Part shown: positions 10,601 to 47,912 of the stretch, in pieces | Layout of the letters: each line of letters opens with the position of its first letter | Numbering within the stretch: position 1 is the stretch's first letter | From: a virus | Taxonomy: Duplodnaviria > Heunggongvirae > Uroviricota > Caudoviricetes | Virus record (IMG/VR): IMGVR_UViG_3300045988_149282 | Coordinates: 1 to 64,000 of that record | Reading direction: 5' to 3' (one strand) | Length of the DNA: 64,000 nucleotides | Position numbers and translations under genes: made by a program | Notes under the pieces: generated by a model | Told to the model about the DNA's origin: nothing | Databases searched by the model: none | Seen by the model: only the letters and a program-made list of their open reading frames with translations

Positions 10601-10655
10601 CCTGCTTCTGTATATATAAATAATAAGTAACTTATTAAATATATACGGAAGCAGG
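10601..10655. repeat. 55-bp palindromic element, copy 1 (exact duplicate of 47001..47055)
   Basis: CCTGCTTCTGTATATATAAATAATAAGTAACTTATTAAATATATACGGAAGCAGG; near-perfect inverted repeat (one G-T position) centred on AATAAGTAACTTATT. Confidence 0.8.
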
Positions 10656-10690
10656 CTTCGTAAGACATGCCAGACCTAGTTAAACGCCCC

Positions 10691-10733
10691 AGAAAACAAG
10701 TTGGTTAGCAGAAGCAGTAAACAAGTTGTTTTA
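10691..10733 (+). promoter_or_regulatory. two copies of the conserved palindromic motif AGAAAACAAGTTGTT (candidate operator/promoter element)
   Basis: AGAAAACAAGTTGGTT (10691-10706) and TAAACAAGTTGTTTTA (10718-10733), ~40 nt upstream of the 10772 start; the same motif recurs at 1037-1052, 1087-1100, 1603-1616, 44991-45006, 47921-47936 and (degenerate) ~60528-60545. Confidence 0.5.
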
Positions 10734-10771
10734 GAGCGCATGGACGCGCTCTGTGTGTTTTAGAGGGATCT

Positions 10772-11404
10772 ATGACGGTCGAAAAAGACGAGGTAAAAAC
10801 TCGCCTGACACCAGCGGAGTGGGCCGAAGCTGAAGCCAAATGGACGTCAGGCGAATATACACTCTCAAAGCTGGAGGAAGAGTACGGCATTCGTCGTGAA
10901 ACACTCTCCAGACATTTCAAAAAGCGAGGATTAGAGAAAGGCGCGGACTCTGTTGGGAAGATGGTTCGTGAGTCTCTTAAATCTGACGCAGAGCTTCGCG
11001 CTAAAGCCCGTGCGGAAAAGATAGAAGAACGTCGTACACGTTATGACGGCTGGGCGTATGCGTTGGGGCAGATGGTGATGGTCGAAGTCACTACGGCCAA
11101 ACGTGAGAGTAAGCCTTTAGGGGCGATTGAGGATTCTCTCAAGAGCTTACAGAGAGCCAGTAATACCCTTGCAAAATGCTTTGAAGTTTCGTCCAAAGCA
11201 TTGGGCATGGATCATGCGGAAAATGACGAGGAAGAAATTCCGAACCTGGTATTTGGTGAGCTTACGCCTTCCCAGGTGGCGAAATTACGTCAGGAAGACG
11301 ACGAGCCTGAAATCATCGATGACGAATTGCTTGAGACGTTGGAAGAAGAAGCTCTAAGCGAATTTGATGCGACAGATGATGGAAGTGAAGGGGAGGACGA
11401 ATAA
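10772..11404 (+). CDS. terminase small subunit (candidate)
   Basis: Immediately upstream of and abutting the large terminase gene; HTH-like N-terminus and acidic C-terminal tail; positional inference. Confidence 0.55.
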   Translation: MTVEKDEVKTRLTPAEWAEAEAKWTSGEYTLSKLEEEYGIRRETLSRHFKKRGLEKGADSVGKMVRESLKSDAELRAKARAEKIEERRTRYDGWAYALGQMVMVEVTTAKRESKPLGAIEDSLKSLQRASNTLAKCFEVSSKALGMDHAENDEEEIPNLVFGELTPSQVAKLRQEDDEPEIIDDELLETLEEEALSEFDATDDGSEGEDE

Positions 11405-12660
11405 TGGCAATCCCGTCCTCGCTCAGTCTTGTGCAACTGCATTCTGGACAGATGAAAGTCTTCCAGTCTCCGCATCGATTTAAAGTTGTTTGTGCTGGTC
11501 GACGCTGGGGAAAATCCCGGTTGTCGATCTCCACTATTATTCGTGCGGCGGCAAAGGAAAAAAAGCAAAGGGTCTGGTATGTCGCTCCTACTTACCAGAT
11601 GGCTCGCCAGATTTTGTGGGACGATCTACAGGAAGTTCTGCCTCGTAAGTGGGTTAGGAAAAAGAACGACACCACGATGACAATCGTGTTGAAGAACGGT
11701 TCGGAGATCGCCCTCAAAGGTGCTGATAAGCCTGACACTCTGCGCGGCGTAGCGTTGCATTTTGTAGTGCTTGATGAATTTCAGGATATGAAGGCTGACA
11801 CCTGGTACAAGGTGTTACGACCTACTCTTTCATCGACACGCGGCGGTGCACTGATCATTGGTACGCCAAAAGGCTTCTCGGAATTTCACAAACTGTGGAC
11901 TATAGGCCAGAACGTAGAGCTGCAAAGAAAGGGACAGTGGAAGAGCTGGCAGTTTGTAACTGCCGATTCTCCGTTTGTGCCTACGGCGGAAATTGAAGCT
12001 GCTAAGAACGATATGGACCCCAAATCGTTCGCTCAGGAGTACCTGGCCAGCTTTGAGAACATGTCCGGGCGCGTTTACTACCCGTTCGATCGTAACGTGC
12101 ATGTAAAACCGCTTCAGTTCAACCCTCGGTTGCCTATATGGGTAGGGCAGGACTTCAACATTGACCCGATGTCTTCAGTAATTTTGCAACCTCAGCCAAA
12201 TGGTGAGCTATGGGCAATTGATGAATTGGTGCTCTTTTCCTCTAACACGGCAGAAGTTTGTGATGAGCTTGAGAGACGCTTCTGGCGCTGGAAATCACAG
12301 GTAACGGTATTTCCAGATCCGGCAGGTGCTTATCGCCAACATGCTCGTGGGGAGTCTGACGTAGACATATTCAAAGAGAAGGGATTCTTACGTGTCGATT
12401 ATTCGAAAAAGCACCCGCCAATTGCGGATCGTGTTAATGCTGTTAACCGAATGCTGATGTCCGCATCTGGAGATATCCGGCTGTATATCGATCCGAAGTG
12501 CAAGCATTTGATTGATTCACTGGAAAAAGTCATCTACAAGCCTGGAACACGAGATATGGATAAGACAGGTGGCATTGAGCATAGTGCAGACGCATTGGGC
12601 TATCCAGTACATCGTAGGTATCCAGTCAAAAACCGTGTTATTCTTGGTGGTTCTCGATAG
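11404..12660 (+). CDS. terminase large subunit
   Basis: Walker A-like CAGRRWGKS, Walker B-like VVLDEFQDM, C-terminal nuclease-like region; located before the portal gene. Confidence 0.85.
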   Translation: MAIPSSLSLVQLHSGQMKVFQSPHRFKVVCAGRRWGKSRLSISTIIRAAAKEKKQRVWYVAPTYQMARQILWDDLQEVLPRKWVRKKNDTTMTIVLKNGSEIALKGADKPDTLRGVALHFVVLDEFQDMKADTWYKVLRPTLSSTRGGALIIGTPKGFSEFHKLWTIGQNVELQRKGQWKSWQFVTADSPFVPTAEIEAAKNDMDPKSFAQEYLASFENMSGRVYYPFDRNVHVKPLQFNPRLPIWVGQDFNIDPMSSVILQPQPNGELWAIDELVLFSSNTAEVCDELERRFWRWKSQVTVFPDPAGAYRQHARGESDVDIFKEKGFLRVDYSKKHPPIADRVNAVNRMLMSASGDIRLYIDPKCKHLIDSLEKVIYKPGTRDMDKTGGIEHSADALGYPVHRRYPVKNRVILGGSR

Positions 12661-40200: not shown

Positions 40201-40456
40201 TCGTAACGGTTATATTGTTGAAATGACATTTAACGTTGGCGGTCAGGAGGCAACTCGCAGTTTCCCGATCAACCCGCGAATGAATATGGGCTCCTACTCG
40301 ATGGAGTTTCGTTTTGCAGCGGATATTCCAGGCAACTATGACAACGTCCCGTTCTTTGTAAGAGCACGTGGTCGGGATGCTACTTGGAACTACCAGTGTT
40401 ATGTAGAAAACATCACTGCCACTGCTTTCCGTACAAACAGCAACTCATTCAGCTAA
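28298..40456 (+). CDS. giant central tail fibre / host specificity protein (J-like, ~4052 aa) with internal coiled-coil plus CBM-like domain array
   Basis: N-terminal J-like region with an FN3-like segment; J-like C-terminal region; between them ~2400 aa of repeated coiled-coil segments each followed by a CBM4/9-like domain (start N-L-x-x-N-x-x-F-E, end Y-x-D-D-V-x-V-x-D-V-T-D). ORF track TTG 28292, first ATG 28298. Confidence 0.85.
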   Translation: MDQFKKKRLPLLIAGAGGKKSSGSSRTPVEADDTVNSRAMASILDLLGEGVVGGLINGAKSIFIDGVALENEDGSFNYSGVTWDFRDGSQDQSPMPGFDFVETPKAVNTQLKTTNAVTVAIDNDDADRVRVIMKFPSLRSIDKKTGDTNGTSVQFKFQLANGNGSFYDVIATGESSSDVKLTAKKTGVYYRSYEIQLPKPGRAYKVRVLRLSADSNDQYLFNDTWVDSIGEIVDTPMNYPNSVLVGLKVNSEQFGSSMPSRSYLIRGLKIRVPSNYDENTNTYNGVWDGTFKLLSSSNPAWILFDLLTNARYGLGKFVSESMIDLGQLYQIGRYCDEEVDDGFGGKEKRFAINTQITSRQDAYRLIQDIAGAFRGMVFWAGGMVNIMQDSPSDPVMLFTNANVKDGLFTYKGSARKDRPSVALITYNNKQDGYKQNVEYVEDQEAMARYGERKTEAVAFGCTSRGQAHRVGLWLLYTARMESDMITFTAGLDASFLMPGETVLIQNKYRAGKRNSGRIVSFTKNSITLDAPVSLKKSGSFIRIINQEGKIVERDINETGDNITKVTFKTALATAEQPVANGVWTITEPDLVPMRARVVAIAQGETPGSFDITVVQNNASKYQAIDNGAALVPENTTVLDPTYSKPSNLVISEGTYLSSPGNLSVKLMLAWEGKSPEYWVSWRRSDEGNVSNWQSARATEEQYEIVNVAENGRYDFQLYSVSFGGKKSEIITAVYQVKGTMTPPGAPTSLTAVGDYRNVVLNWVNPDSVDLAQINVYASKTNKLDTATLIAQAATTTFTHAGLGDNETWYYWIRAVNKRGMVGQPNSNLGTEATTRDVLSFLKDKITSSELGKELLDEIDSKATQEAVDNAIGEVQNSVNESIQQVENDLAQTSSEIKAQVDSVNQSLKEDIKTVNQTIVDNIDAVNQTINTNISNVNSQIEAAKQSIKDGDAALSQEIKNAQSSLTTSLSQTSKDLTAAIQKETNDRIADVNDAAKQAADQLLSAKNELKTSIDSLSEVVTSGDENLARQISQIAAGTGEQFDSLKIWYFDQDAEGWTEDDNGYTPMSVTSDGWLKANNPTSTCRSPNGLTIDAHAYRFIKMRIKKVGNPTWNAKMFWIGADETGWNAGRSVVINEPEYDDKGIAILTLHDLEWRDSTTIRRFRFDFTSGQDTDNYLLFDWIAVGRPTPGAGMAALQEEQQARANADTAEAQARSTLAAQIRGSSESGNLDDIRSGLIYQEKNARITADAAEASARESLQTEFNRNKASVAEELHTLSTEQASQASKITGLQTSLGQKADASAVQTISQKVEEQGNTLKSQGAALSTLDNRVGSVESGVSANSKAITGLQSTVTQQDKTLSSQSESITTLNNSLSDIQSDTDTAKSNPSNLLVNASFERDLAGWSAGNSVSNVIKASAPHSGSKILVCAAGTVQITQSVSVVEGRTYKLSSFVRCTTDAVISSPGNNKLRIGAATLLKEIPIRPENLPKDETWKEVSDTWKATLTGKVDVSIMSSLKTGSQYFDDVGFVDVTDALAIEANASATNALTSRVSSVEGTITSQGQQITSMQNSIKNKADASAVTNLANRVTAAENQISSQSQSITSLSNSLDNANADADASKAIIGNMLKNNSFERGFEGWEYVGWTLLEAQNPKSGKYIIQAGKLASGGDSGCNQTIELQAGKTYRIGAWVRKSADFAINNAGNNKISLRNADLTPIKDIPITGAGLSTNWALISGEYTPAKTASVVVSLRASVASGYMYLDDVFCVDVSNEKAIDATSNALSTLNSTVTQQGKDITSNSNSITSLSNQMVNGRQNMWVRSVYNVQLANNTTEPTFSDINGKAPISIDEVPDAAKLDFASAGSYVIAHYKAFVKVNADTTITMAPGSRVFDDTGAVYVNGVRVAFGNASWNTVSFDLKAGWSTVEFLVNQWTGQAYINLGFKLSEKVAQLNSALGMNALSNAISAVTSNVSTVGDRVTSTSQSVTDLRNSLEQTNANLANKADAQALSTLQNTVSKQGDTISSQGNSITNLNNTLTAARNSGDNLIPNYDFLQGATAWDIQYPAGVAFGNFGDGKAGVKLNRTTTTSPGIFSNNNKPLPLNGQRKYRVVVKAKGVSGAMNMLIRRQNKIGQTDSNYEDKNVTLTSEWQTITWETGLTASNADGQNFKLYAHPANAEIWVDTFKVFDITDEVKIKANSDALSTLSSTVTQQGDKITSQGNSITKLTNDLEAADANIAKKADQSAVTTLTGRVEKTESGLTAANSNITSLSSSLSQQSKRGANLLPDGTFESYAVGHNLSNNRVIVTTDDSHGGNKCIRVTRPNDYNANATDNSDNHIFSGFQVRDNAVFYMECWVKLDANSTAMAENTQISIGLSLQYQDNSWQWPAVTKAAKDLSTAQWTKVSGYLKSTKSGIKQAMVRISIPNVSSVKAGNSFLIDDLVITEVTDAYNAQSTADANANAISTLDSTVSQQGDQITSQGNSITKLTNDLATTNNNVSKKADQSALSVLSGRVDQTESGLSSANSSITALNSSVRAGNATSGDLISNPTFDPEFSQMGFTVVPSSSEGVPANCPYAYVARIAARDHHPNFAAIPATLGDVYEMSALVACGTGSADFNLYLGTATRPSGSVGAPLSSGGNRKASATWQRVTWRFKITQGIVDRGFFRPFLQINQSSPFGTVWYVTDWHLRNVTDSSKVQDSLDATAKAVDSLTSTVNQQGENISSIGTRTTNLENNLRTTNANVAQKADANALTALTNRVTQTEKDINSTSSSVTNLNNKVDAISVGGTNLIKNSGDMTGWSNVVSDTYRGNAVIGATVKAGSGYRDLREITLESPVDAGEYVYSFYAKGGVAGQIMTAFFYNPNTTTSIETSQGAKGNNSDGRAQFTLTTSWARYWVKWKQTPTTSTKRLILCRIESNTSKDQTVYINSPKFEVGNVVSDWNESPSDSASASAVDSLTTKVNQQGTSISSIGNRTTSLENGLSTAQNNIAKKADASALQDLRNTVTSQGDDLTAANSSITSLHASMNRRTVFTVTARGNGNSVTHGVFDESGKNLFTPGRSWALVTFAKHSDGSTVIATSKTYDVFGSANNGATMSADIEALASGTYVCVLTFDEPTGNRGKVLSALESLGGTSEVVNSLPYRGAYILLGRKGMKPGDGLELRAPTGGDGTAHISTSVEFVNGVMMGLGAAGGVMMKADANASAITTLQNTVKTQGDNIDSLSSSTTALENSLASSNASVDAASQIPGNLIVNPSFERGTEGYTGWSGIATVATLQVPHLGTKAAKLAAGGSAGVGQKISFKKDRSYKIGIWAKQDPNTTIQSTDNTKFRVADGTGLIASKVYGPFTSNWQEVSWTWKATKDVLADVQFTAFLSAGAMYFDDFYVVDVTDSVETQANSSAITKLDSRVTKTENDITSQGSQVTQLKNDLATTNTNVSKKADAAALTALTNRVTQNEKEIGTQSSQTTSLKNSLSTVQAMGSNPWFDGSLETYSENQQISGSRAVVVSSQKRSGTKSLRVSRGAGEGGNSDKTIGKWIALRENAVFRIELWAMMPADQSPSSGWSTLVGLQTQNAANNNNWPTAITINEAALGARGAWKKFTGTLRVAAGHTRGAFWVSTRGTTGTGTPGYDLYIDDVVVTDITDAKEAQDSANSNASALTSLTSRVTNVEGQVTSQASQLSSLTSQVNDASSKVDQMAQTITNNEKTQSSLNTSLQSQIDAQASANIKNQTELNNATTSMAAIKSTQQTQATTISALSQQQTNLTAQVGGQSAELQELKKTVVENGNVNSTWMVKMETNSNGKKYAAGIALGIDGKNLQSQFLVQTDRFGLINTSNGNTTTPFVIENGVAYINAAVIKDGSITNAKIGGEIRSDNFVNGSNGWRIGKDGSSQFNNAIFRGHIEARSGTFKGTLEAQNFIGDIAVARRYAGLSFRRNNTVQRDGRYQNRGYGMTIVLSCTLIYQVTGGNEDRNGYIVEMTFNVGGQEATRSFPINPRMNMGSYSMEFRFAADIPGNYDNVPFFVRARGRDATWNYQCYVENITATAFRTNSNSFS

Positions 40457-43715: not shown

Positions 43716-44135
43716 ATGCTAAATTATCATGACAATACGCGTTCTATGCAGACGATCCGCACCAATACTGCGGTTATCGACAGCTTTCCTATGCGTATTC
43801 ACAACAGTGAAGACGCAGTAGAAGTGCGACGTATGTTGTGCCGTGAATCAGCTAACCGCCAGCACTTCATCGTCACTTTTAAGAGCGATGTGGCGCGTGC
43901 CGAAAAGATCTCTAATTCTACGTCACTGGTTAAACCGTTGGCCGAGGTTGTCACTAACGGTAAACGAACCTCTTTTGTTTTAGATGTTGCTGAACAATAT
44001 CCTGACTTGAAGTGTTTAGATCGTGATATTTCTTCACGAATCAAACAAGTTGTAGAGTCTTTTATGAAGAAATTCTGTAAAATCGATGATATGGAACCAT
44101 CAACGGCACAGAATACTTCATGGCACCATCTCTAA
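43716..44135 (+). CDS. hypothetical protein (139 aa)
   Basis: ORF with AAGGTGG RBS after the hairpin-rich intergenic region 43480-43700. Confidence 0.5.
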   Translation: MLNYHDNTRSMQTIRTNTAVIDSFPMRIHNSEDAVEVRRMLCRESANRQHFIVTFKSDVARAEKISNSTSLVKPLAEVVTNGKRTSFVLDVAEQYPDLKCLDRDISSRIKQVVESFMKKFCKIDDMEPSTAQNTSWHHL

Positions 44136-44893
44136 TTGGTCAGGCGAACAGATTAATCCCTGAAATAGAAGACTACAGCAAGGTCTTGTCTGAAATGCCG
44201 AGAGCGACGAGAATTATCGCTCTCGGTGAGTTCTATTTTATCTCCCGAGGTTTCGATCTAATTCGATTTACCGAATACGAGCTTGTTGATTCGGCCTATG
44301 AACGCTGTATTGTTGGCGAGTGTCTTGAGTCATGTGATCCTGATTACCAAGAGCAGGAAGTTAAGCGACTCAAACGTGCTGGTTACACACCTCTTGAGAT
44401 AGGAGCAGAAATTGAATCCTACAAGTTGCATGTGGGGCAGCCAGTCCAAACAGTCTTCCGCGTGGCCTACTGCGAGTTTCCAATCAAGGATAAATCTGGA
44501 GTAAAAGTCAGCGCCAAGCAGATTAGAGGGGTTTTTACTCATGCTGATTATATGGGATTAGGCATCGCAAGTTTTGCTTACCTTTATCTCGTAGATAAGT
44601 ATCAGTACTTGGTTTGCGATACGTTACAGACGGTAAAAGGCGCAACTCTTTGGGCTGTGAGTATGCGCAAACATGGACTGGTCGAAATTTACGATACGAA
44701 GAACGAAAATTTTATAGAGGAATTGGGTGAGGATGCCTGTGGCGTAAGTGGTTTTATTCCGTGGGATATCGGTAAGTCTGACGGAGGCCAGATGCGAAGA
44801 CGTGAAGAGTGGGGGACTAATAAAATCAATCTCACCCCAGGTGCTTGTACTCATATAGTGAACATTCTGAGTAAACGATCTATGAATCAATAA
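44120..44893 (+). CDS. hypothetical protein (257 aa)
   Basis: ORF overlapping the upstream gene end; strong terminator follows (44893-44916). Confidence 0.5.
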   Translation: MAPSLIGQANRLIPEIEDYSKVLSEMPRATRIIALGEFYFISRGFDLIRFTEYELVDSAYERCIVGECLESCDPDYQEQEVKRLKRAGYTPLEIGAEIESYKLHVGQPVQTVFRVAYCEFPIKDKSGVKVSAKQIRGVFTHADYMGLGIASFAYLYLVDKYQYLVCDTLQTVKGATLWAVSMRKHGLVEIYDTKNENFIEELGEDACGVSGFIPWDIGKSDGGQMRRREEWGTNKINLTPGACTHIVNILSKRSMNQ

Positions 44894-45041: not shown

Positions 45042-45710
45042 ATGACCAAGATCTTTGTGGTTGGCGGCACAAAGGGCGGGCCTGGCAAATCCACCGTTGC
45101 CCAGCAAATTGCCGTTTGCCTGAAAGTCAAAAAGAAGAAGAAGGTTTATATTACCGATATAGATATTCAGCGCACGACAACGAGCTGGTGTGAAGACCGT
45201 CGACAGAACGAAGACCTTGAGCTGATTCCTTTTGCATACGTTCAGGATGACATCATTAAGCACCTAAAATCGCTTCAGGGTAGAGCTGAGTTTGTAGTGG
45301 TAGATGCTGGTGGCTTCGACTCCGAAATTCAGCGACAAGCGATGCTGATGGCTGACGTTATCATTATCCCGCTGCGTCCTAAGCGTCGTGATTTGAAATC
45401 TTTACGTGACATCGATCCTATTATCGACAATGTTCGCAATGTAAACGATAAAGTGAAGGTCCGCGCGGTCATGAACCAGTGCCCGGCTTTGCCATCACAA
45501 GTGTCTCGCATTCTGGCGGCTAAAGAGATTGTTGAGACGTTTGGCATCGAGTCTGCGCCAGTCAATCTATATAACCGCAACGTCTATGATGATGCGGAAG
45601 AGTCTGGTCGCTCTATCTTTGAAATGACCGGTAGCGAGCGCGACAAAAAGGCGGAAGCCGAGTTTGAAGAATTTGTAGATTATCTGTTGAGTCTGGAGGA
45701 AGAAGAATAA
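45042..45710 (+). CDS. parA: ParA/Soj-family partition ATPase
   Basis: Deviant Walker A (GGTKGGPGKST) typical of ParA/MinD; size ~222 aa suggests a type Ib ParA; conserved upstream motif AGAAAACAAGTTGTTT at 44991-45006. Confidence 0.85.
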   Translation: MTKIFVVGGTKGGPGKSTVAQQIAVCLKVKKKKKVYITDIDIQRTTTSWCEDRRQNEDLELIPFAYVQDDIIKHLKSLQGRAEFVVVDAGGFDSEIQRQAMLMADVIIIPLRPKRRDLKSLRDIDPIIDNVRNVNDKVKVRAVMNQCPALPSQVSRILAAKEIVETFGIESAPVNLYNRNVYDDAEESGRSIFEMTGSERDKKAEAEFEEFVDYLLSLEEEE

Positions 45711-46069
45711 TGTCCATGAAAATGGGTGACCTAGCAAAGCGCAAAGAGCCTGATGCACCGGCTAAGAACACAACTCCTTTGCGCCAACCAGTCAGACCAC
45801 AGGGACGCCCGACTCGTGGCAAAGAGAAAATTAAAAGCCGCACAATGTCACTGGAGGACGAATACTTCGAACTGCTGGAGATGATGAAGTTCATCCCTCG
45901 CTTCGAGAAGTTCACTCGTTCTGACGTGATTCGAGCAGCCATTTTCCATCTGGCAGAGAAGTCACCGCAGGAAATCGAGGACATCGTGAAATTGAATGAG
46001 GCGATCACCGCTGCCGATGTCACGATGCGTACCGATGAAATCAAACGAGAGTTGATGAAGAAAGGTTAA
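45710..46069 (+). CDS. partition partner protein (candidate centromere-binding protein, ParG/RHH-like)
   Basis: Start overlaps parA stop (TAATG); basic disordered N-terminus with structured C-terminal region, as expected for a small ParA partner. Confidence 0.5.
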   Translation: MSMKMGDLAKRKEPDAPAKNTTPLRQPVRPQGRPTRGKEKIKSRTMSLEDEYFELLEMMKFIPRFEKFTRSDVIRAAIFHLAEKSPQEIEDIVKLNEAITAADVTMRTDEIKRELMKKG

Positions 46070-46073
46070 AAAT

Positions 46074-46104
46074 CATGCATTGGCGCGTACATTGCGCCAA
46101 TGCA
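46074..46104. terminator. bidirectional terminator between convergent genes
   Basis: 12-bp perfect inverted repeat ATGCATTGGCGC / GCGCCAATGCAT with 7-nt loop between the partition operon (+) and the GIY-YIG gene (-). Confidence 0.6.
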
Positions 46105-46121
46105 TAACTACAGTGTCAGCT

Positions 46122-46889
46122 TTATGCCGCGCTAACACTATGTTCAGTCCTAACCACCCCAACCTTCACAAAAGGGCTACCGTAGCTTGGTGGCTTCTTG
46201 ATTAATTTGCCTACATACAGTTTTCTAATATGCTCATCGGCTATTCTGCCAACAAATTCATAACGTTTTGTGTCGGGGCCAAGAGCTATATCCCTTGTAA
46301 AGTACTGCTGAGAACCGGCTTTGACCCAGCATTCAATCTGATAAACTTCCATTATCAGCCCACCATATGTAGCGTAGGCATATTTGAGATTCTCGTCTCT
46401 TGGAACCTTTGCCCATACGCCACGCGTAGCTTCATATAATGCCAGAGCGGACATTCCTGACTTGTAGGTGCTGTTTAGCAGGAAGGCAAGACCGGCGTGC
46501 TCAGGAGCAATTTCAGTTTCCTCTTGCAGCACTAAGTGATGGTAGGCGTCCAGTGATATTCTGCCCATCATGGAACCACTTCCTCGTACCTTATTCGTAA
46601 GCTCTCCGACCCCCATAAGGTCGATGCATGTCGCCTCAACAAGTTTGGCTGTGGTTTCATCCATACCATGACGAAGTATATCTATGCCTAATTTTTTATT
46701 AGCCAAAAGTTCTTTGATCCGCATGGATTTGGGAGAGTCATCGGGATACTTGATGTGATCGAGACAACGAGTCGATTTGCCTTTTCCTATGTAAAACGGT
46801 CTTTTCATCTTGTCTTCTGTATCATAGAGACAGTAAACATAGTATTTAGCCTTATCCAATGATCTCGCGTATACCGATAAATCGTCCAT
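46122..46889 (-). CDS. GIY-YIG family nuclease (homing-endonuclease-like)
   Basis: N-terminal GIY-YIG-type motif (YYVYCLYD ... RPFYIGKGK ... R ... H); convergent with the partition operon and separated by a 12-bp-stem bidirectional terminator. Confidence 0.55.
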   Translation of the reverse strand: MDDLSVYARSLDKAKYYVYCLYDTEDKMKRPFYIGKGKSTRCLDHIKYPDDSPKSMRIKELLANKKLGIDILRHGMDETTAKLVEATCIDLMGVGELTNKVRGSGSMMGRISLDAYHHLVLQEETEIAPEHAGLAFLLNSTYKSGMSALALYEATRGVWAKVPRDENLKYAYATYGGLIMEVYQIECWVKAGSQQYFTRDIALGPDTKRYEFVGRIADEHIRKLYVGKLIKKPPSYGSPFVKVGVVRTEHSVSAA

Positions 46890-47000
46890 TATTGCATCTC
46901 TTTGCTACTGACTAATGCGTTCTATTTTACACATAAGTTTTTAATCAATTTAACAGGCTCAAAGTGTAGAGCTTCTGGGCGTCTAAGACGACAAGTTATG

Positions 47001-47055
47001 CCTGCTTCTGTATATATAAATAATAAGTAACTTATTAAATATATACGGAAGCAGG
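47001..47055. repeat. 55-bp palindromic element, copy 2 (exact duplicate of 10601..10655)
   Basis: Identical 55-mer located between the GIY-YIG gene and the replication module. Confidence 0.8.
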
Positions 47056-47171
47056 TCTTTTAAAAGACACCACCAGAACAACTCCCTTCCGTTTCCACTT
47101 CCAAAAACTGCCACCAGTCGCTATCATCCGCTCATTGTGATAAGTAAGTAACTACCTACCAGGTGAGCCAC

Positions 47172-47912
47172 ATGAGCCAAATCTTTTTCGATACCATCGA
47201 CAACGACCAGTACGACTTCATGACAGAGTGGAATACCGCTGTTATGGACAAGTGGGTCGCTGAAAACATTGGTTTGTCGCGCTGTAAAGACGAGGCTGAA
47301 CTCTTCGAGACGAAGTGGTTTGATTACCGCGACATGCATCCTCTCATGGCCACCTGTCTTTTTACGGAGGCATACAAACGTCAGTACTCAAATATCATGC
47401 TGACGCACGGTCGCGAACACTTTGAAACAGCTCCGTTCACCACCGGGTTAAAACGCCTGCCTTATCAGGAGTTGTCGACTGCCAATAAAACGTCGCTATG
47501 GAAAGCACGCCAGTTTGCGGATCGCTATTGCTGCTCATACGACTACTTTATCTCCACCGTTCTTTCCGCAGCTGCACGACGGCTGTGGGACAAGCTGCCG
47601 CGCCCACAGCATTTATGGCAGCCAGAACTGATTGAGATATTTGAAGAGAAATTAGCCAGACGCGCAACAACCCGTCTGGATGACTCTCTGGTTAGCTTTA
47701 AGCATATGGGAGACATGCAGTTCAACCCGATTCAGGAAAGCTATTTTGAGTGGATTCTGGAGCGTTTGCGCACCATCCCTCGCAGCAAGCGCATACGCGC
47801 AATTTTCTCCGCTATCTGGCTAATGGAAATCGTTCCAGAGCGCCTTATTTCCGCCCACTTTCCAGAAGAACTGGAAGAAGCACGGCGGTTTATTGATCCC
47901 CTATCTAATTAA
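47172..47912 (+). CDS. hypothetical protein (~246 aa), replication-module associated
   Basis: ORF track 47163 (GTG), first ATG 47172; immediately upstream of the DnaB-like helicase. Confidence 0.5.
   Translation: MSQIFFDTIDNDQYDFMTEWNTAVMDKWVAENIGLSRCKDEAELFETKWFDYRDMHPLMATCLFTEAYKRQYSNIMLTHGREHFETAPFTTGLKRLPYQELSTANKTSLWKARQFADRYCCSYDYFISTVLSAAARRLWDKLPRPQHLWQPELIEIFEEKLARRATTRLDDSLVSFKHMGDMQFNPIQESYFEWILERLRTIPRSKRIRAIFSAIWLMEIVPERLISAHFPEELEEARRFIDPLSN

Follow-up and report, generated by a model that had tools for sequence, protein, structure and literature searches.

Organization of the locus

The window analysed here is a stretch of 64,000 nucleotides (positions 1 to 64,000 of the IMG/VR virus record IMGVR_UViG_3300045988_149282), and the subject of this report is a minus-strand gene at 46122-46889 that codes for a GIY-YIG nuclease. 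This region is 98-99% identical to two Escherichia phages, PhiR41_1 and CMS-2020a, and about 82% identical to phage SSU5 of Salmonella, and on the basis of these identities it was assigned to the SSU5-like phage-plasmids. A gene for a giant tail protein is followed by lysis genes, a variable segment (43716-44893), parA, a gene in the position of parB (hereafter the parB-position gene), the nuclease cassette and a replication block made of a 249-aa open reading frame (ORF; 47163-47912) and genes for a DnaB-like helicase, a primase and an ATP-dependent ligase. A first-pass annotation of this DNA, made by a model from the letters alone, had placed the nuclease gene between the partition operon and the replication module, which agrees with this order, parA and the parB-position gene lying to the left and the replication block to the right. 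It had also described the gene as the only one on the minus strand between 40 and 53 kb, and the nuclease ORF is indeed the sole credible minus-strand gene there, since the remaining ORFs on that strand overlap with longer ones on the plus strand, several of these with Pfam support. The features of the locus are the following.

45042-45710, plus strand: parA, with a Pfam match to MipZ/ParA-type ATPases
45710-46069, plus strand: parB-position gene, 119 aa, the conserved left border of the slot
46070-47000, no strand assigned: exchangeable cargo cassette of 931 bp, 43.6% GC against 47-49% in the flanks, at which homology breaks in relatives
46068-46105, minus strand: predicted intrinsic terminator of the nuclease gene, a hairpin (46075-46105) and a T-run overlapping the stop codon of the parB-position gene
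46122-46889, minus strand: nuclease ORF, 255 aa, ATG start, homologues beginning at the same Met
46890-47000, minus strand: cassette-specific upstream region of 111 bp, with a presumed promoter (TAAAAT, a -10-like hexamer) and ribosome-binding site (AAGAG)
47001-47062, plus strand: palindrome copy 2 (dyad 47001-47055) followed by TCTTTT, the right border of the slot, terminator-like on the plus strand
47163-47912, plus strand: opening gene of the replication block, 249 aa, conserved on the right side of the slot, no family match

The 119-aa product of the parB-position gene had no Pfam match, the ParA match belonging to the gene upstream.

A two-domain homologue of CMoRE

The nuclease matched the LEM-3-like GIY-YIG domain of Pfam (PF22945, E 5.5e-7) and contains a conserved GIYxY-YIG motif, which bears out its earlier designation as a GIY-YIG protein. 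The characterised enzyme to which it is related is CMoRE/PD-T4-3 of E. coli APEC O1 and O157:H7 (PDB 9U7U and 9U75; Liu et al., Nat Commun 2026, PMC12923530). A type IV restriction enzyme made up of a single component, CMoRE degrades DNA containing 5-hydroxymethylcytosine (5hmC) or glucosyl-5hmC (5ghmC) and gives E. coli protection from the phages T2, T4 and T6; its C-terminal domain binds 5hmC and its GIY-YIG domain carries a third tyrosine, giving the GIYxY-YIG signature (PMC12923530). Tetrameric assembly, which is required for function, is a further feature of the PD-T4-3/CMoRE family.

The relationship was found by four comparisons. The PADLOC model for PD-T4-3 (PDLC04031) matched residues 11-231 of the nuclease with an E-value of 1.3e-23, over profile positions 11-238 of 256 (228 of the 256 positions). 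In a phmmer search of all PDB sequences, only CMoRE/PD-T4-3 entries (9U7U, 9U7Z, 9U75 and 9U8D) were matched, with an E-value of 2e-15, and the alignment ran from end to end, residues 12-230 of the nuclease being aligned with residues 17-243 of the CMoRE chain. The C-terminal 134 residues alone, searched against the PDB, again matched only CMoRE (E 2.7e-4), and the homology therefore reaches the non-catalytic domain too. Finally, hhalign comparison of a profile of 39 homologues with the CMoRE sequence gave a probability of 99.3% (E 5e-20) with 33% identity over 208 columns. The two-domain architecture of the solved CMoRE, an N-terminal GIY-YIG domain and a C-terminal sensing domain, is thus matched by the nuclease.

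46578-46856, minus strand: GIY-YIG domain, with Y17-x-Y19...Y33-I-G (the GIYxY-YIG motif), R41, E85 and N99
46161-46511, minus strand: C-terminal domain, about residues 127-243, homologous to the modification-sensing domain of CMoRE, its predicted model resembling PUA-like readers

Residues Y17, Y19, Y33, R41, E85 and N99 were invariant in the 39 homologues, and they align with Y17, Y19 and Y31 of CMoRE and with its essential catalytic residues. The first-pass annotation had expected a DNA-binding domain at the C-terminus; no homing-type module (NUMOD, IENR1, zinc finger or helix-turn-helix) was found in the nuclease by Pfam at E-values up to 1, and the homologue of the CMoRE sensing domain stands in its place. 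No match was obtained in NCBIfam, and in PHROGs only the unnamed phrog_5356, of unknown function, was matched. The resemblance of the C-terminal domain to PUA-like readers is weak, comes from the predicted model and is at odds with the statement of the CMoRE authors that this domain has no structural homologue (PMC12923530), and we regard it as a lead.

Two-domain homologues with 28% identity over 88% of the nuclease were also present in jumbo phages of Serratia and Pectobacterium, about 275 kb in size (MK994515, Serratia phage Moabite; MF285618; ON375847; and others), in which they are annotated as GIY-YIG or homing nucleases. These proteins may be type IV-like nucleases directed against competitors with modified DNA.

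The nuclease gene occupies a variable slot

The nuclease is the only gene in the cassette, with no methyltransferase or other partner gene, as is the case for the single-component PD-T4-3/CMoRE. Cyrano, SSU5 and pJN2-26, a Klebsiella relative, are homologous to this locus exactly up to the parB-position stop codon (46067-46069) and again from the left edge of the palindrome (46991-47001) onwards. Among the relatives, the slot between these two borders has at least eight alternative contents.

GIY-YIG cassette, with the PD-T4-3 model match
352-aa gene, minus strand
225-aa gene, minus strand
DUF2971 gene, matching the PADLOC candidate system PDC-S31 (E 1e-41)
Two-gene set
SSU5 three-gene set
Fragmented KAP-family NTPase gene, matching the PADLOC candidate PDC-S49
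Almost empty slot, 30 bp (NZ_CP113488.1)

Only three of the at least eight alleles match known or candidate defence families, the remainder being unknowns. In the empty allele, the 30 bp that were kept (…TCTGGCAGCTTCAATCAGAA) match the right end of the SSU5/pJN2-26 cassette, and this allele therefore looks like the product of a deletion and not like a virgin site. This remnant suggests that the DUF2971 type is ancestral and that the other alleles are replacements or deletions. The first-pass proposal of an accessory, horizontally exchanged gene that is missing from many relatives at this junction is in agreement with these comparisons. A literature search on whether a defence hotspot has been described in SSU5 elements turned up nothing specific among the titles and abstracts listed.

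The hairpin at the left end of the cassette (46075-46105) consists of a 7-nt loop on a perfect stem of 12 bp, with a folding energy of -25.1 kcal/mol (z -4.9; none of 200 shuffles folded as well). It is followed by GAUUUUUAA on the minus strand, forming a canonical terminator, and by AACUACAG, which has no U-run, on the plus strand, so that the features of a terminator are present on the minus strand only. A bidirectional terminator had been proposed at 46074-46104; the hairpin itself is real, with coordinates one base off, and termination is predicted in the minus-strand direction and not in the other. The consensus scan called neither this hairpin nor the palindrome a terminator, and the assignments were made from folding and from the flanking bases. 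Those of the other non-empty alleles that do not open directly with a gene have their own distinct hairpin immediately after the parB-position stop codon, and the SSU5-type cassette passes directly into coding sequence at this point. As these hairpins differ from allele to allele, the left hairpin must travel with the cargo. The hairpin is thus part of the variable cassette and the palindrome part of the conserved backbone: the description of the gene as bracketed by a terminator and a palindrome is literally true, but its two brackets are not of the same status. In the E. coli ET220 plasmids, the 7-nt loop (46087-46093) is inverted (GTACATT against AATGTAC) with the stem unchanged, which is a flip of a perfect palindrome.

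The palindrome is a backbone feature

The 55-bp palindrome to which the first-pass annotation had drawn attention exists at 47001-47055, and it is imperfect, the outer arms of 17 nt matching at 94% and the inner arms of 16 nt at 88%. Its folding energy is -30.2 kcal/mol (z -8.5). It was retained beside every cargo allele and in the empty allele, by which an insertion scar or a target-site feature of the cassette is ruled out. The T-run that follows it reads TCTTTT in E. coli, TCTTTTT in SSU5 and TTTTTTT in pJN2-26, and in pJN2-26 both arms are altered together in a compensatory change to CCTGTTTC...GAAACAGG. With a conserved T-run and a paired change of the arms, the palindrome looks like a selected hairpin or dyad, and judged from its sequence copy 2 looks like a plus-strand terminator that would insulate the replication block.

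A second copy lies 36.4 kb away in the window.

10601-10655, plus strand: palindrome copy 1, 55/55 identical to copy 2 and in the same orientation

Copy 1 is located about 120 bp upstream of two genes, the second of which encodes the terminase large subunit (11404-12660). In both linear virion-derived records, those of SSU5 and Cyrano, the cut falls within this copy, 9-10 nt to the right of its centre, and such a cut could correspond to a packaging cleavage site of the cohesive-end (cos) type or else to a convention of assembly and orientation. Nothing usable on cohesive ends or a cos site of SSU5 was found in a search of the literature. The position of these ends within the palindrome also raised the idea of a protelomerase-type telomere site, which is unsupported: the plasmid records whose topology was checked carry a circular annotation. 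In PhiR41_1 the spacing of the two copies is about 29.5 kb, against about 36.4 kb in the window.

Distribution and exchange of the cassette

The backbone segment was found in 264 (about 5%) of 5,426 complete E. coli genomes and the cassette in 106, that is about 40% of those with the backbone; all 106 copies are plasmid-borne, with an identity of at least 98%. In PLSDB the backbone is common to 731 plasmids, and the whole query is carried by 124. Two plasmids in which parA, the 249-aa ORF and dnaB are only 80-90% identical to those of the window have a nuclease ORF that is 99.2% identical and an upstream region that is 97.3% identical. A cassette at 99% identity within diverged backbones, themselves at only 80-85% identity, must have moved between them recently. 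The identity of the flank climbs towards the cassette, from 85% in parA to 96% in the 3' half of the parB-position gene. Four alleles of the nuclease are intact and differ by 3-4 synonymous and 1-2 non-synonymous changes, for a ratio of non-synonymous to synonymous polymorphism (pN/pS) of about 0.1 calculated on small numbers. An intact nuclease gene was also kept in a remnant bounded by insertion sequences in a 141-kb plasmid (NZ_CP062888.1, 19155-20706). This fragment comprises the parB-position gene, the nuclease gene, the palindrome and the start of the 249-aa ORF, and the plasmid also has a CFA/III pilus regulator.

Outside the phage-plasmids, homologues with 73-76% identity stand alone in bacterial chromosomes, surrounded by housekeeping genes: in Providencia in the mutS region, in Salmonella beside guaA and in Shewanella beside metH. 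The nuclease family is mainly chromosomal in bacteria, and is not confined to phages or introns.

Proposed function and alternative explanations

We consider it likely, from these sequence comparisons, that the nuclease is an anti-phage nuclease of the PD-T4-3/CMoRE family carried as exchangeable defence cargo by an SSU5-like phage-plasmid. On this view it is a divergent representative of an established defence family, found where cargo typically sits, and the arrangement is ordinary. In the plasmid state, during lysogeny, the gene would be transcribed from its own promoter, presumably within 46890-47000, against the direction of the flanking par and replication operons, and transcription would stop at the hairpin and T-run of the cassette. 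The C-terminal domain would sense hypermodified bases of incoming phage DNA; the solved relatives recognise the 5-hydroxymethyl- and glucosyl-hydroxymethyl-cytosine of T-even phages (PMC12923530), and a modification of this kind is the presumed target. The N-terminal GIY-YIG domain would then cleave the modified phage DNA. DNA of the host and of the phage-plasmid, having no such modification, would escape cleavage, and a methyltransferase partner would therefore not be needed. A part in conflict with other phages, as foreseen in the first-pass annotation, would plausibly be served by a nuclease of this anti-phage family.

What is published on the family bears on this proposal. In a native E. 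coli isolate only two defence systems were found to be active; one of these is PD-T4-3, which acts against Tevenvirinae. PD-T4-3Capno, a Capnocytophaga protein 48% identical to PD-T4-3, cuts T4 and Mu DNA and spares the unmodified DNA of T4-GT7 (Rodriguez-Rodriguez et al. 2025, PMC12366544). A 2025 preprint on a DefenseFinder screen of phage-plasmids reports PD-T4-3 from elements of the SSU5 group in E. coli and Shigella (S. sonnei), and its supplementary table lists it at least 44 times, without coordinates. The PD-T4-3 of SSU5 phage-plasmids in that preprint is very probably the same gene as the nuclease described here.

Several observations weigh against this assignment. The identity to the characterised enzymes is only about 30%, and specificity could therefore differ. 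The acidic loop that autoinhibits CMoRE is missing: the corresponding segment is 5 residues shorter and reads YPDDSPKS, and the longest acidic run anywhere in the nuclease is of 2 residues, compared with four consecutive ones in the CMoRE loop. The CMoRE authors take this loop as a hallmark of the family, present in "most" members and not in all (PMC12923530), and within the subfamily a four-residue acidic run was found at this place in 4 of 39 members. The predicted model of the nuclease monomer superposed poorly on the CMoRE crystal structure when the two were compared globally, with a template modelling (TM) score of 0.37, a value that we put down to the two domains being placed differently relative to each other across the flexible linker. 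A consensus promoter scan also gave nothing at its threshold for the nuclease gene.

The missing loop can be taken further, as the mark of a distinct branch of the CMoRE family that has no acidic safety catch, has a divergent PUA-like sensor (of ASCH/EVE/YTH type) and is linked to a palindrome-driven exchange of cassettes. We think this whole combination unlikely. If it were true, the loop-less branch would recognise different or broader phage modifications, or would avoid self-cleavage by other means. As to the exchange itself, the cassette may move among diverged phage-plasmids since the slot borders on a palindrome of the same sequence as the one at the probable packaging-cleavage site, and breaks made there could drive the replacement.

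A related explanation is that the nuclease belongs to the same family and has another target. The loop-less subfamily would then sense a modification besides 5hmC and glucosyl-5hmC, for example the adenine modification of the Mom type or some other hypermodified base, or would be regulated differently without an acidic lid. The distance from CMoRE and the loss of the autoinhibitory loop are both compatible with it, and so is the relaxed specificity of the PD-T4-3 homologue that cuts both T4 and Mu DNA (PMC12366544). In CMoRE the contact with 5hmC is made by a main-chain atom (PMC12923530), at a position that falls in a poorly conserved linker region, and specificity therefore cannot be predicted from the sequence. 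All members characterised to date, however, act on cytosine modifications of the T-even type, and no feature of the sequence favours a particular alternative. We judge a change of target improbable.

The first-pass annotation had read the gene as the insertion of a free-standing homing endonuclease, which would cut related phage-plasmids that have no copy, be copied in by repair and exclude nearby markers. The sporadic presence at a single junction between conserved genes, the 99% identity of the cassette in diverged backbones with an identity that rises towards it, as co-conversion would give, the existence of one empty-slot allele and the annotation of the distant jumbo-phage homologues as homing nucleases are all consistent with this idea. 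The gradient of identity, however, is equally well accounted for by homologous recombination in the flanks, and the empty allele, with its 30-bp remnant, resembles a deletion. Relatives without the cassette mostly hold other cargo in the slot, so that they would share no uninterrupted target. The homology of the C-terminal half is with the sensing domain of CMoRE and not with modules of the NUMOD, IENR1, zinc-finger or helix-turn-helix type, and the homologues at 73-76% identity are lone chromosomal genes by guaA, metH or genes of the mutS region. With a multi-allelic slot and a palindrome that belongs to the backbone in addition, the homing interpretation is not supported and we give it very little credence.

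A housekeeping nuclease of structure-specific or repair type (UvrC, Slx1 or LEM-3-like) that aids replication, recombination or palindrome processing of the element would fit the Pfam match to a LEM-3-like domain, the presence of UvrC and Slx1 among the structural neighbours of the nuclease model and the position of the gene next to the replication block and a long palindrome, but such a role is hardly credible, because most relatives have no such gene (about 60% of the E. coli elements with the backbone are without it, as are SSU5, Cyrano and the Klebsiella relatives, and the palindrome is kept in all of these), homologues reside in chromosomes without any such element and the closest solved relative is a restriction enzyme.

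For the anti-phage nuclease favoured here, the consequence would be that hosts of SSU5-like elements with the cassette are probably resistant to T-even-type phages, which is of relevance to phage therapy and ecology. RefSeq labels the gene "LEM-3-like GIY-YIG domain-containing protein" or "hypothetical", and a defence gene would be the better description. The loop-less subfamily offers a natural test of the proposed autoinhibition and is a possible source of enzymes with other modification specificities. Specialists will not be surprised by the assignment, since defence cargo is common on temperate elements and PD-T4-3 is already listed in SSU5 phage-plasmids.

Other features of the window

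A further variable slot, 43716-44893, separates the lysis genes from parA. In the window it contains two genes (139 and 257 aa) with no family match, at 43.6% GC; in Cyrano and several E. coli plasmids it is occupied by a GNAT/KacT-type toxin with a DUF1778 antitoxin, and in pJN2-26 by a 185-aa gene on the minus strand. A single ORF of 4,054 aa extends from 28292 to 40456 and codes for a tail or host-specificity protein with many repeated coiled-coil-like segments.

A 30-nt motif ending in AAGAAAACAAGTTGTT occurs in seven copies, at 113, 1020, 1071, 1587, 44976, 47906 and 60511, among them copies located just 5' of the DnaB-like gene and of parA. Downstream of palindrome copy 1 there is a related motif (10690-10735). 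This repeated motif is probably a phage promoter or operator motif. Three tandem 30-nt repeats at 1462-1551, AAGCACCCACCTGTTCCCGTCCGGCTACCG-like, could be iteron-like or a coding repeat.

Comparison with known systems

The nuclease shares with CMoRE/PD-T4-3 its organization as a single gene of about 250 aa, the GIYxY-YIG motif, the catalytic Arg and Glu and a homologous sensing domain. It differs in being about 30% identical, in a loop between helices 2 and 3 that is 5 residues shorter and has none of the four acidic residues, and in being carried on a phage-plasmid, with an activity that is predicted from sequence. PD-T4-3Capno is likewise a divergent family member that is still modification-dependent, with function kept at low identity (PMC12366544), and it cuts both glucosyl-hmC (T4) and Mom-modified (Mu) DNA. 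The GIY-YIG catalytic domain is also common to the nuclease and to the T4 Seg proteins and I-TevI, whereas the nuclease has a homologue of a modified-base sensor at its C-terminus instead of a homing-type DNA-binding module and belongs to a mainly chromosomal family. VcaM4I, the N-domain of McrBC and readers of EVE/ASCH/YTH type represent type IV systems that join a nuclease to a PUA-like reader; here the nuclease is of GIY-YIG type and not HNH or PD-(D/E)xK, and the likeness in fold of its C-terminal domain to such readers is weak in the predicted model.

The defence hotspots of P2 and P4 have fixed borders and swappable cargo with its own promoter and terminator, often in opposite orientation, and these features are common to the slot described here. 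This slot differs from them in lying between the partition and replication modules of a phage-plasmid and in holding defence-like content in three of its at least eight alleles.

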